Assembly: GCF_054482595.1 (NCBI RefSeq)
Contig: NZ_CM137008.1
Reading direction: 5' to 3' (one strand)
DNA: 64,000 nucleotides
A program made the position numbers and the translations under genes. Of this stretch, positions 12,298 to 20,132 are shown piece after piece (the first letter of the stretch is position 1; each line of letters opens with the position of its first letter). Under the pieces are notes generated by a model, which had not been told where the DNA came from, did not search any database, and saw only the letters and a program-made list of their open reading frames with translations.

Positions 12298-12927
12298 ATG
12301 ATTCGGGTAGTGCTGGTGGATGACCATGTGGTGGTGCGCTCTGGCTTCGCACAATTACTCTCTCTGGAAGACGATCTGGAGGTCATTGGTCAGTACAGTA
12401 GTGCCGCGCAGGCATGGTCGGCATTAATCCGTGATGACGTCAATGTTGCCGTCATTGATATTGCCATGCCAGACGAAAACGGCCTCAGTTTGCTTAAGCG
12501 CCTGCGTGCACAAAAACCGCAATTTCGCGCCATTATTCTTAGCATTTATGACGCGCCAACCTTTGTGCAAAGCGCGCTGGATGCCGGTGCCAGCGGGTAT
12601 TTAACCAAACGCTGTGGGCCGGAAGAGTTAGTGCAGGCGGTGCGCTCGGTCGGGCTGGGCGGGCATTATCTCTGTGCCGATGCGATTCGGGCTTTACGCG
12701 GCGGCGGGCAACCCGCCCAGGCGCTGGAAATTCTCACCCCACGAGAACGTGAAGTGTTTGATTTACTGGTCAAAGGAGACAGCGTTAAAGAGATCGCCTT
12801 TAAACTCGAACTCAGTCATAAAACGGTACATGTGCATCGCGCCAATGTGCTGGGAAAACTGAACTGCCATAGCACCATTGAACTGGTACATTTTGCGCTC
12901 GACCACCATCTGCTGGCGGGGCATTAA
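12298..12927 (+). CDS. Two-component response regulator, NarL/FixJ (LuxR-HTH) family, UhpA-like
   Basis: 209 aa; receiver domain (VLVDDH...D) plus C-terminal LuxR-type HTH; resembles UhpA; stop overlaps the kinase start (TAATG). Confidence 0.85.
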   Translation: MIRVVLVDDHVVVRSGFAQLLSLEDDLEVIGQYSSAAQAWSALIRDDVNVAVIDIAMPDENGLSLLKRLRAQKPQFRAIILSIYDAPTFVQSALDAGASGYLTKRCGPEELVQAVRSVGLGGHYLCADAIRALRGGGQPAQALEILTPREREVFDLLVKGDSVKEIAFKLELSHKTVHVHRANVLGKLNCHSTIELVHFALDHHLLAGH

Positions 12928-14468
12928 TGTCGCGCAATCTTCGTCATTGGGTGATTTCGCTGTTTATTGTGCTGGCCTGGGGAACCGGCTGGCTGATGCT
13001 GTGGACGCTCAGCTTTTATCTGACCAATAACGGTCAACAGGCGGTGTTGTTTCTCCCGCAGGGAGTTTATCTCGCCCTTGTTATTTTGCTCTCTCGCCGC
13101 TACTGGCCTGCGTTGGTGCTCCCCCCTTTGCTGATGATGTTCTGGCTCCATAGTGAACAGCTATTGAACGGTTATCTCATGCTGGCAACGCCGGTTATTA
13201 GCCTGTTTCCTGTCCTCCTTGCGCAAAACTTCTGGCACCGTTTTCCACTTTACTGGCAGCGTCTGACGTTGCTGTTAGCCACTGTCACGGCAGCTTCATT
13301 GTTGAATACCGCCCTGCTCTCCCCTTTTATGTCAGGCCCAATAATGCTGCCGGGTTTGACCTCATTTACCGGCGGCGTATTACTGACGCCGTTTGTCTAT
13401 CTTATCTTTGAGTTTCTGCGCCAGCAGCATCGCTACCAGCTCCTGGGACTCGATACGCATAATCCCCCCTTGCGTACCTCTTTAATCATCTGGTGTAGCC
13501 TGTTTTTTATTATTGGTATCGGCACTCAGATGGTGCTGTCACCTGAAATTGAACGTCTGCTGTTGATCGTGGTCTTTTTGCCCAATGTGGTGATGGCGTG
13601 GAAATTTGGCTGGCAAGGTGGCGTACTCTCCGGGCTTTTGGGCAGCATGATGATCACCATCGCCCGCCAGATTGGCGTGGGCTTTAGTAACCTGGTGGAG
13701 CTGGAGATTTTCCTCGCGACCCAGGCCTTGCTGGGAATTGGCCTGGGCATTGCCATCAGTCGCCAGCAACATCTGGCGCTAAACCTGCACCATTACCGAC
13801 AACGGCTGGAGGCCGAGCTGGCAGCGCGGCGGGCATTGGCGGAAAAGCTGATCCACACCGAGGAGGACACGCGAAAAAACCTGGCGCGAGAGCTGCACGA
13901 CGAAATCGGTCAGAACATCACCGCCATTCAGATCCAGTCGCAACTGGTGAAGCGGGCGCGTGATCCGGCGCAAATTCAATCCGCAGCCAGCCAAATCAAT
14001 GAGCTCGCCCGCCGCATTCATCTCTCCACCCGCCAATTGCTGCGCCAGTTGCGGCCTCCCGCGCTTGATGAACTGACATTTCGCGAAGCGTTGCTGCATC
14101 TGATTAATGAATTTGCCTTTAGTGAACGCGGCATTCATTGCCAGTTTGCCTATCAACTGAACTCCACACCAGAAAACGAAACGGTGCGCTTTACCTTGTA
14201 TCGGTTATTGCAGGAGTTGCTCAATAACATCTGTAAACACGCCGAAGCCAGCGAAGTGACGATTATCCTGCGCCAGCAGGGAGAGGTATTGCATCTGGAA
14301 GTCAGCGACAACGGTGTGGGGATCGCCAGCGGGAAAATGGCCGGATTTGGCATTCAGGGGATGCGTGAGCGCGTCAGCGCCCTGGGCGGCGACTTAACGC
14401 TCGAAAAACAGCACGGCACGCGGGTAATTGTTAACTTGCCCACATTTTTGCAACAAATCGCCGGATAA
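12927..14468 (+). CDS. Sensor histidine kinase, UhpB-like (polytopic membrane N-terminus, HisKA_3/HATPase C-terminus)
   Basis: 513 aa; hydrophobic N-terminal half; motifs ARELHDEIGQNITAI and GFGIQGMRERVSALGG as in UhpB. Confidence 0.85.
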   Translation: MSRNLRHWVISLFIVLAWGTGWLMLWTLSFYLTNNGQQAVLFLPQGVYLALVILLSRRYWPALVLPPLLMMFWLHSEQLLNGYLMLATPVISLFPVLLAQNFWHRFPLYWQRLTLLLATVTAASLLNTALLSPFMSGPIMLPGLTSFTGGVLLTPFVYLIFEFLRQQHRYQLLGLDTHNPPLRTSLIIWCSLFFIIGIGTQMVLSPEIERLLLIVVFLPNVVMAWKFGWQGGVLSGLLGSMMITIARQIGVGFSNLVELEIFLATQALLGIGLGIAISRQQHLALNLHHYRQRLEAELAARRALAEKLIHTEEDTRKNLARELHDEIGQNITAIQIQSQLVKRARDPAQIQSAASQINELARRIHLSTRQLLRQLRPPALDELTFREALLHLINEFAFSERGIHCQFAYQLNSTPENETVRFTLYRLLQELLNNICKHAEASEVTIILRQQGEVLHLEVSDNGVGIASGKMAGFGIQGMRERVSALGGDLTLEKQHGTRVIVNLPTFLQQIAG

Positions 14469-14540
14469 CCAGGAAAAAGTCTTAGGTATCCCGGATTTTC
14501 TCTCATCCCCTTTCACTTTCATTTTCATATAGTCAGCAAC

Positions 14541-19043: not shown

Positions 19044-20090
19044 ATGAGTCAGAAAAATTTTGTTGAACTGCGCAACGTCACTAAACGATTCGGCAGTAAT
19101 ACGGTTATCGACAATATCAATCTCACCATCCCACAAGGGCAAATGGTGACGCTGCTCGGTCCTTCCGGCTGTGGCAAAACCACCATTTTGCGTCTGGTTG
19201 CCGGGCTGGAAAAACCGAGCGAAGGGCAAATTTTTATTGATGGCGAAGATGTCACGCATCGTTCCATTCAACAGCGCGATATCTGCATGGTGTTTCAGTC
19301 ATACGCTCTGTTCCCGCATATGTCGCTGGGTGAAAACGTTGGCTACGGGCTGAAGATGCTTGGCGTGTCGCGTAGCGAAGTGAAACAGCGGGTGAAGGAG
19401 GCGCTGGCAATGGTGGATCTGGAAGGCTTCGAGGACCGCTATGTCGATCAGATTTCCGGTGGTCAGCAACAGCGTGTGGCACTGGCCCGCGCGTTGATCC
19501 TCAAGCCAAAGGTGCTGCTGTTTGATGAGCCGTTAAGTAACCTCGATGCCAACCTGCGCCGCAGTATGCGCGATAAGATCCGCGAGCTGCAAAAGCAGTT
19601 TAATATCACGTCGCTCTACGTCACTCACGATCAAAGTGAAGCTTTCGCGGTGTCCGACACTGTGCTGGTAATGAATAAAGGTCACATCATGCAGATTGGC
19701 TCACCGCAGGATCTCTATCGTCAGCCAGCCTCCCGATTTATGGCAAGTTTTATGGGCGACGCCAACCTGTTCCCGGCGAACTTTAGCGAAGAGTATGTCG
19801 ATATCTACGGTTATCGCCTGCCGCGCGCGGCGCATTTCCCGGCGCAAGGTAGCGGCACCGTCGGCGTTCGCCCGGAAGCCATCACCTTAAGCAATCACGG
19901 CGAAGAGAGTCAGCGTTGTGTTATTCGCCATGTCGCCTACATGGGGCCGCAGTACGAAGTGACCGTAGAGTGGCATGGACAGGAGATTTTATTACAAGTA
20001 AACGCCACCCGTTTACAGCCCGATATTGGTGAGCACTATTACCTCGAAATCCATCCTTACGGGATGTTTGTTTTAGCGGATGCGGCATAA
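19044..20090 (+). CDS. afuC: AfuC-type ABC transporter ATP-binding protein
   Basis: 348 aa from [12 protein letters not shown] with GGAG RBS; Walker [10 protein letters not shown], signature LSGGQQQRV. Confidence 0.88.
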
Positions 20091-20102
20091 AAATAGCACA
20101 TA

Positions 20103-20132
20103 AACGGTCCCCATCTGTCTTGAGGGACCGTT
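20103..20132 (+). terminator. Stem-loop 13 nt downstream of afuC (9-bp stem AACGGTCCC/GGGACCGTT, 12-nt loop)
   Basis: Perfect inverted repeat; no U-tract, so intrinsic-terminator status is uncertain. Confidence 0.3.

Follow-up and report, generated by a model that had tools for sequence, protein, structure and literature searches.

A six-gene cassette of Escherichia coli O-island 20 that probably links the sensing and import of sugar phosphates

We propose that six genes lying between tauA and frmR form a cassette of two transcription units that probably serves to sense and import external sugar phosphates. The cassette was found in a 64-kb window (the whole stretch of DNA analyzed here, 64,000 nucleotides of contig NZ_CM137008.1 in assembly GCF_054482595.1), and all coordinates below refer to it. 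Judged by its sequence, the region is E. coli O-island 20 (OI-20), carrying fusR, fusK, z0461 and afuABC in intact form. The initial annotation recognized a sensor and an importer but missed their identity with OI-20, FusKR and Z0461, and with it the fucose signal of the kinase and the repression of z0461 that have been published; an island combining the two is already described and is not new.

Relative to an "empty" allele, the island covers 12134..20157 (8,024 bp, no strand assigned). In a BLAST comparison of three alleles (the island, the empty allele of CD306 and the yai allele of C21-2), the match to the empty allele stops at 12133 and restarts at 20158. The initial annotation had placed yai genes in this interval of K-12 and read the region as a replacement island, and both points hold: yaiS, yaiP, an acetyltransferase (yaiX) and yaiO are found there, and the tauA-frmR interval exists as island, empty and yai alleles. 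All six open reading frames are intact and on the + strand within the interval first given for them. Their products are 99.1-99.7% identical to ECs_0418-0413 of O157:H7 Sakai (Z0463-Z0458 of EDL933), which are likewise located between frmR and tauA. The window thus shares its site, its six genes and their order with OI-20 of EHEC O157:H7 (Z0458-Z0463 / ECs_0413-0418); there is no structural difference, and the host strain of the window is not O157. The island is 100% identical to that of the non-O157 urine isolate XH990, and the cassette is carried by 519 of 5,426 complete E. coli genomes (~10%), with sources including chickens, pigeons and human urine. A search for anti-phage defence families returned only a trivial helix-turn-helix match. 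Variation of the locus among E. coli strains is the sole reason to ask whether this strain carries no more than an inactive remnant of the cassette. We found no support for such a reading and consider it hardly credible, given six intact frames that nearly match experimentally studied O157 proteins, and intact cis-elements.

The first two genes encode a UhpA-type response regulator (FusR / Z0463 / ECs_0418; 12298..12927, + strand), with a REC domain and a LuxR/GerE helix-turn-helix, and a UhpB-type sensor histidine kinase (FusK / Z0462 / ECs_0417; 12927..14468, +). As the initial annotation noted, the two overlap, the kinase ATG sharing one base with the regulator TAA to give TAATG. Its assignment of the sensor proteins to UhpA, UhpB and UhpC is borne out insofar as these are the best curated family matches, with 51%, 39% and 53% identity, respectively, to the K-12 proteins. 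UhpA is the top NCBIfam match of the regulator, which scores 193 bits, under the cutoff of 258, and is 99.5% identical to its Sakai counterpart; by sequence, then, the regulator is a UhpA paralogue rather than an equivalog. The kinase carries the Pfam domain set of UhpB (MASE1, HisKA_3 and HATPase_c) and aligns with the UhpB model over its full length at 382 bits, under the equivalog cutoff of 408; its identity to the Sakai protein is 99.6%. Since both proteins score below these cutoffs, they may recognize other ligands and DNA sites than UhpA and UhpB do, a point against the sugar-phosphate model. Upstream of the regulator gene, a consensus scan marks a weak promoter-like site, TTGCCA-16-CATGAT (12240..12267, +; 9/12 positions); matches of this kind are not commoner than in shuffled sequence.

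The third gene encodes a UhpC-like MFS receptor (Z0461 / ECs_0416; 14553..15857, +). Its reading frame opens at 14541 and ends at 15857, but we correct the gene start to the conserved ATG at 14553. A GGAG at 14543-14546 precedes this ATG, most genera have ACG in place of the ATG at 14541, and the O157 annotation also uses the downstream start. At 590 bits, the protein exceeds the cutoff of 564 for the NCBIfam UhpC subfamily, and it shows 53% identity with UhpC and 31% with UhpT. The counterparts of GlpT R45, K80 and R269 are invariant among 81 MFS orthologues; the protein therefore combines membership of the UhpC family with the phosphate-binding arginines (R45 and R269 counterparts) expected of a UhpC-type receptor. 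One residue may count against the sugar-phosphate model: at the position of GlpT H165, each of the 79 enterobacterial orthologues has Ile, whereas Vibrionaceae have His.

The remaining genes encode an importer: afuA for a periplasmic sugar-phosphate binding protein (ECs_0415; 15854..16885, +), afuB for a fused double-domain ABC permease (ECs_0414; 16954..19032 by the RefSeq start, + strand, with the ORF open from 16903), and afuC for an ABC ATPase (ECs_0413, annotated as fbpC; 19044..20090 by the RefSeq start, + strand, with the ORF open from 19032). The afuA ATG overlaps the MFS stop by 4 nt as ATGA, just as originally described. AfuA matches solved sugar-phosphate-binding AfuA proteins (PDB 4R72-4R75 at E = 1.5e-169, and 8X1A at E = 1.8e-173). 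Its precursor residues H229, D230 and E253 correspond to mature H205, D206 and E229, the sugar-coordinating motif defined in PMC4546632, and are invariant. Directly downstream, AfuB (692 aa, 99.1% identical to the Sakai protein) shows two permease stretches in the NCBIfam scan, and AfuC (99.7%) matches PRK11432 at 700 bits against a cutoff of 496. The suggested homology with a characterized importer is upheld by these matches and retained residues, and AfuABC, including the C. rodentium OI-20 version and the system of A. pleuropneumoniae, has been reported to transport G6P, F6P and S7P (PMC4546632). A hairpin between afuA and afuB is no better than shuffled sequence (z = -0.9). The string ends, as first claimed, in a stem-loop (20104..20131, +; read from the sequence and by RNA folding) followed by the frmR promoter palindrome. 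The stem-loop has an 8-bp stem, a 12-nt loop and no U-tract and folds at -18.5 kcal/mol (z = -2.8); a terminator scan called no canonical terminator 3' of afuC.

Central to the proposal is the gap between the kinase and MFS genes (14469-14540), which by sequence comparison is the site of a conserved, predicted promoter with geometry matching that of K-12 uhpT. It opens with the dyad CCAGGAAAAAGTCTTAG (14469..14485, no strand assigned; consensus CYAGGAA-N3-TTCCTRG), which we propose from its conservation as the binding site of the regulator. Next come the conserved box TCTCATCC (14501..14508, +), at about -39 to -32 and at a fixed offset from the dyad, and a predicted -10 element, TATAGT (14528..14533, +), recognized by fixed offset and alignment and without a good -35. 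Transcription would start near 14540, about 63 bp downstream of the dyad center. With up to two mismatches allowed, 74 of 78 loci have the dyad at the kinase stop, against six occurrences elsewhere in 1.5 Mb; its palindrome is perfect in Buttiauxella, Erwinia, Rahnella, Vibrio and Photobacterium. TCTCA or TCCCA lies at a fixed offset of 32 from the dyad start in 75 of 79 loci, and a TAnnnT hexamer at one of 59 in 75 of 79, including those of Vibrio and Photobacterium. When the K-12 uhpT promoter is aligned on the -10, CCYGGA-N5-TCTCA is common to both at identical positions. Two regions had been suggested for UhpA-box-like repeats; the first, 14469-14552, yielded this candidate box, and the second, 15700-15860, holds no dyad match. 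The dyad at 14469 is the only match at this threshold in the window. Its right half is degenerate in E. coli (GTCTTAG), which we count against the sugar-phosphate model. A visual comparison of the dyad with the FusR site reported for the ler promoter shows only the A+T-rich core GAATAAT in common, a likeness to which we give no weight.

Since the dyad falls where the kinase gene ends and in several genera is fully palindromic over 7 bp with a loop of 3 nt, it could be read instead as an RNA hairpin that ends or stabilizes the regulator-kinase transcript, with all six genes forming one constitutive operon. We reject this reading as very improbable. No U-tract follows the dyad and the terminator scan does not call it; in the most frequent variant, which 46 loci share, E. 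coli among them, one-sided changes break two of the seven pairs; in the Vibrio locus the dyad lies within the kinase coding sequence; and the fixed spacing from dyad to TCTCA box and -10 hexamer would be needless for an RNA hairpin.

The cassette is not specific to EHEC but is found across Enterobacterales and Vibrionaceae. Our survey of Enterobacterales took in 80 of 438 species matches. In all 73 uncut loci among these, regulator, kinase, MFS, afuA, afuB and afuC follow in one order on one strand, and the order is kept while kinase identity drops to 55%. Gap lengths between the genes are also conserved, that between kinase and MFS being ~72-84 bp. No uhpT homologue lies within 10 kb of the cassette in any of the 80 loci; downstream of the sensor pair are the receptor gene and afuABC. 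The initial annotation had deduced a regulatory link between sensor and importer from gene order, and such a link now gains support from the invariance of that order in 80 species and from the conserved uhpT-like promoter and dyad directly upstream of MFS-afuABC. Among more distant AfuA relatives (P0121, P0123 and P0125, 48-72% identity) no linked sensor was found, or the contigs were too short, so sensor linkage is not general to the whole protein family. The AfuABC system of Actinobacillus pleuropneumoniae (Sit et al. 2015, PDB 4R72-4R75) also comprises an ATPase, a fused permease and a homologous binding protein in which the sugar-coordinating residues are the same; in Pasteurellaceae, no linked sensor was present at the one locus examined (Gallibacterium), nor beside the 72%-identical P0121.

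The same six-gene string occurs in two Vibrionaceae loci, one in Vibrio (V. metoecus/cholerae group) and one in Photobacterium, and has the gene order of the VCA0682-VCA0687 hexose-6-phosphate system of V. cholerae. Both loci have the dyad at the kinase stop and the box and -10 spacing of the window. The AfuA of the window shares ~79% identity with the Vibrio protein of structure 8X1A, whereas the Vibrionaceae sensor proteins are only 43-62% identical to those of the window, and the 4-nt overlap of MFS and afuA is replaced by a gap of 112-138 bp. In work from 2013 by Moisi and colleagues, hexose-6-phosphate reportedly induced the VCA0682-0687 operon of V. cholerae by way of VCA0682, a homologue of UhpA. 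Taken with the publication of AfuABC as a hexose/heptose-phosphate importer, this wiring means that the finding is already known. VCA0686 is described as the permease of the V. cholerae hexose-6-phosphate uptake system (PMC4101255).

K-12 UhpABC-UhpT has the same three sensor components, the same overlap of regulator and kinase genes and the same kinase domain set. Its uhpT promoter, like the one predicted in the cassette, lacks a -35, places TCTCA 27 nt ahead of the -10 and carries CCAGG/CCTGG-type dyads upstream; the sequence and spacing of the dyad differ between the two. The sensor proteins of the window are paralogues of K-12 Uhp at 39-53% identity, two of the three below equivalog cutoffs. 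In place of the UhpT antiporter, the proposed output is a primary ABC importer; the promoter that would be regulated precedes the receptor gene instead of following it; and the gap between kinase and receptor genes is 72-84 bp in the cassette versus 9 bp in K-12.

On this basis, we propose the following scheme. The regulator and kinase genes would be translationally coupled and supply a UhpA/UhpB-type two-component pair. After the gap of ~72-84 bp, the UhpC-like MFS gene, afuA, afuB and afuC would form a second unit under a promoter that lacks a -35 element and depends on an activator. An external hexose or heptose phosphate bound by the MFS protein would signal to the MASE1 kinase, which would phosphorylate the regulator; the regulator would then occupy two sites, the dyad (about -63) and the TCTCA box (about -39), and switch on both the receptor gene and the ATP-driven importer. 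As the receptor gene would be activated along with the importer, we also propose that the receptor feeds back positively on itself. We infer both the signal, a sugar phosphate, and the direction of control, activation.

A sugar-phosphate-driven MFS-afuABC unit sits uneasily with published fucose sensing and z0461 repression. As summarized in PMC11644481, PMC6199705 and PMC4810492, Pacheco 2012 named fucose as the FusK signal in EHEC, reported ler, z0461 and the fuc genes as targets of repression by FusR, and called Z0461 an aid to fucose import; fucose-stimulated FusK autophosphorylation and ler repression appear in the summaries of PMC11644481 and PMC4810492. By these published accounts, FusK and FusR are a working kinase-regulator pair, and reviews describe FusKR as restricted to O157:H7. 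This model could be the whole story, with AfuABC a mere neighbor under its own control, and it draws strength from the 99.5-99.6% identity of the window's proteins to FusR and FusK and from the induction of fusK, fusR and z0461 with the fuc genes in bovine gut contents (PMC6199705). That the fus, z0461 and fuc genes rise together there is nonetheless at odds with simple repression. Further points against it are that the cassette is kept with afuABC in 80 Enterobacterales species (of 438 matches) and in Vibrionaceae, and that about 10% of complete E. coli genomes, including chicken, pigeon and human urine isolates, carry it. To our knowledge, most of the genera bearing the cassette lack the LEE, which we also count against a fucose-only function. 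In addition, z0461 and afuA overlap by 4 nt with the sole conserved promoter upstream of z0461, and Z0461 retains the phosphate-binding arginines of organophosphate antiporters, which free fucose would not need. Overall, we regard it as unlikely that fucose sensing is the entire function of these genes.

FusKR is a classic case of a pathogen that senses a sugar set free by the microbiota, AfuABC is a colonization factor in a mouse model, and OI-20 itself is textbook material for EHEC. Here, the order of the genes, the residues of the receptor and a predicted promoter with deep conservation favor a sugar-phosphate-activated importer operon, and the conflict with the fucose model is testable. 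With the odds evenly balanced, we suggest that FusKR together with Z0461 may represent the orthologue, in enterobacteria, of a conserved three-component sensor of sugar phosphates, whose ancestral and main output would be activation of z0461-afuABC via the CYAGGAA-N3-TTCCTRG operator and uhpT-like promoter; the EHEC fucose response and repression of ler and z0461 would then be a lineage-specific overlay or an indirect effect. If this is true, the signal and main output assigned to FusKR would need revision, and a defined operator would be gained for study.

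Six reading frames on the plus strand occupy 12298-20090 of the window, as the initial annotation had described: a UhpA-like regulator gene (12298-12927), a UhpB-like kinase gene (12927-14468), a UhpC-like MFS gene (open reading frame 14541-15857, conserved start codon at 14553), afuA (15854-16885), afuB (16954, the RefSeq start, to 19032) and afuC (19044, the RefSeq start, to 20090). Both reported overlaps are seen in the sequence; the kinase ATG shares one base with the regulator stop codon (TAATG), and the ATG of afuA overlaps the MFS stop (ATGA). The MFS gene starts at 14541 in the XH990 RefSeq annotation and in the plain reading frame, and the ATG at 14553 is backed by cross-genus comparison and the O157 annotation. 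Cassette G+C (0.52-0.58) is near flank values. The stem-loop said to close the string is present after afuC at 20104-20131, with an 8-bp stem and 12-nt loop (-18.5 kcal/mol, z = -2.8), but it lacks a U-tract and the terminator scan made no call there.

Profile searches bore out the proposed kinship of the sensor proteins, whose best curated (NCBIfam) matches are UhpA, UhpB, and the UhpC subfamily. The MFS protein scores above its cutoff (590 versus 564 bits; 53% identity to the K-12 homologue), and the regulator (193 versus 258 bits; 51%) and the kinase, matched over its full length (382 versus 408 bits; 39%), score below theirs. The kinase carries MASE1, HisKA_3, and HATPase_c domains. Identity between the MFS protein and UhpT is only 31%. 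K-12 carries the canonical uhpABCT at another chromosomal place, and the sensor genes here are distinct from it, their products being paralogues of UhpA, UhpB, and UhpC. The importer likewise agrees with its characterised homologues: AfuA matches the solved AfuA structures (4R72-4R75; E = 1.5e-169) and keeps H205, D206, and E229 (H229, D230, and E253 in precursor numbering) of the motif defined previously (PMC4546632).

The chromosome of the urinary E. coli isolate XH990 matches the window at 100% identity. In O157:H7 Sakai, all six genes occupy the same site (frmR-tauA) as ECs_0413-0418, with proteins 99.1-99.7% identical; their order equates them with EDL933 Z0458-Z0463, or O-island 20 (OI-20). 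Z0463 is fusR, Z0462 is fusK, and Z0461 has been described as a fucose-import helper (PMC6199705). The afuABC genes have been placed on OI-20 beside FusKR, and crystal structures, calorimetry, and uhpT-mutant complementation established that AfuABC imports G6P, F6P, and S7P; the OI-20 counterpart in C. rodentium performs the same import and contributes to colonisation (PMC4546632). Because OI-20, FusKR, and AfuABC import are all published, the island has been described before.

The tauA-frmR interval of E. coli exists as three alleles: this island (window 12134-20157), a K-12-type block of yaiS-yaiP-acetyltransferase-yaiO, and an "empty" form holding a 75-bp, REP-element-like filler (positions 3135-3209 of the strain CD306 locus, with junctions at window 12133/20158). 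The cassette is thus a replacement relative to K-12, as first proposed. The right junction at 20158 is common to all three; the left junction of the yai allele differs. Just upstream of frmR, outside the island and common to the three alleles, a long near-perfect palindrome at 20176-20226 (TATATACTATAGGGGGGTATGC...GCATACCCCCCTATAGTATAT) overlaps the top-scoring sigma-70-like match (20195-20223) and presumably serves as the FrmR operator.

Of 5,426 complete E. coli genomes, 519 carry the sensor part of the cassette, chromosomal in every case; 450 of these have the tauA junction and about 69 do not. O16:H6 strain CU37RT-2 carries a 94%-identical copy at a different chromosomal site (5631-14887 of its comparison locus, L088), directly after a tyrosine recombinase gene and between ulaE-ulaF and degraded IS genes; E. 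coli has therefore acquired the cassette on at least two occasions. Four matches (H23, H44, H45, and H52), including O157-type TW14588 and O55:H7 TB182A, have the kinase annotated only as "MASE1 domain-containing protein," which could reflect truncation or a mere naming difference.

A scan by AfuA alignment, with one genome per species, recovered relatives in 438 species, and the best 80 are all Enterobacterales. Among these 80 loci, all 73 not cut by a contig end have regulator-kinase-MFS-afuA-afuB-afuC on one strand, an order unchanged though kinase identity drops to 55%, and no uhpT was found near the cassette. The regulator and kinase genes overlap or abut in all loci, with gaps of mostly 63-84 bp between kinase and MFS genes and mostly -4 to +60 bp between MFS gene and afuA. 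The same six-gene string is present in a Vibrio metoecus/cholerae-group locus and a Photobacterium locus. One Gallibacterium locus contains afuABC but no sensor, and no linked sensor was found beside the more distant AfuA relatives examined. Separately, the locus of one 72%-identical AfuA representative (L089, 3550-5781) has two tandem binding-protein genes following dcd and udk; no sensor genes precede them, and the pair resembles Actinobacillus afuA and its pyridoxal-phosphate-binding partner.

Across 76 aligned loci, the non-coding kinase-MFS gap is more conserved than the adjacent kinase coding sequence. In the window, the gap contains a dyad at 14469-14485 (CCAGGAAAAAGTCTTAG), followed by a box without variation at 14501-14508 (TCTCATCC), a predicted -10 hexamer at 14528-14533 (TATAGT), and a ribosome-binding site at 14543-14546 (GGAG). 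Of 78 loci, 74 have the dyad, with two or fewer mismatches, at the kinase stop; elsewhere it matches only 6 times in 1.5 Mb. It is a perfect palindrome in several genera, such as Buttiauxella and Erwinia (CCAGGAATAATTCCTGG) and Rahnella (CTAGGAATAATTCCTAG), and a flawless CTAGGAA-N3-TTCCTAG occupies the same place in both the Vibrio and the Photobacterium locus. In 75 of 79 loci, including those of Vibrionaceae, offsets from the dyad start are 32 for the box and 59 for a TAnnnT hexamer. This promoter has no good -35 element, an absence typical of activator-dependent promoters. With the two promoters anchored on the -10, that of K-12 uhpT has CCYGGA-N5-TCTCA at matching positions and also CCAGG/CCTGG dyads upstream; UhpA binds a strong upstream and a weak downstream site there (PMC4790336). 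The cassette's own regulator therefore probably binds the dyad and box, with the MFS-afuABC unit as the putative output under its control and a predicted transcription start near 14540.

Reviews of Pacheco 2012 (PMC11644481, PMC4810492, PMC6199705) describe FusK as sensing fucose, FusR as repressing ler, z0461, and the fuc genes, and FusKR as confined to O157:H7 and perhaps derived from Enterococcus faecalis. That distribution is contradicted by the Enterobacterales loci (best 80 of 438 species) and by the 519 of 5,426 E. coli genomes. Equivalents of GlpT R45, K80, and R269 (UhpT R46 and R275), which bind phosphate in the organophosphate antiporter family, are invariant in 81 MFS orthologues, a conservation that suits an organophosphate as ligand better than free fucose. 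The position of GlpT H165 is Ile in 79 of 79 enterobacterial orthologues and His in the two Vibrionaceae orthologues, UhpC, UhpT, and GlpT; this may be a binding-pocket change particular to the lineage.

Judged from its conserved architecture, the cassette is predicted to be activated by sugar phosphates, and the V. cholerae orthologues were reportedly found to be activated by them (Moisi et al. 2013). The original interpretation, a sugar-phosphate sensor wired to an ABC importer, is supported, and that design is already known from Vibrio. The literature searched included no study that re-examined FusK with sugar phosphates. The remaining interest of the cassette lies in its conserved operator and promoter, its wide distribution, and its clash with the fucose model.
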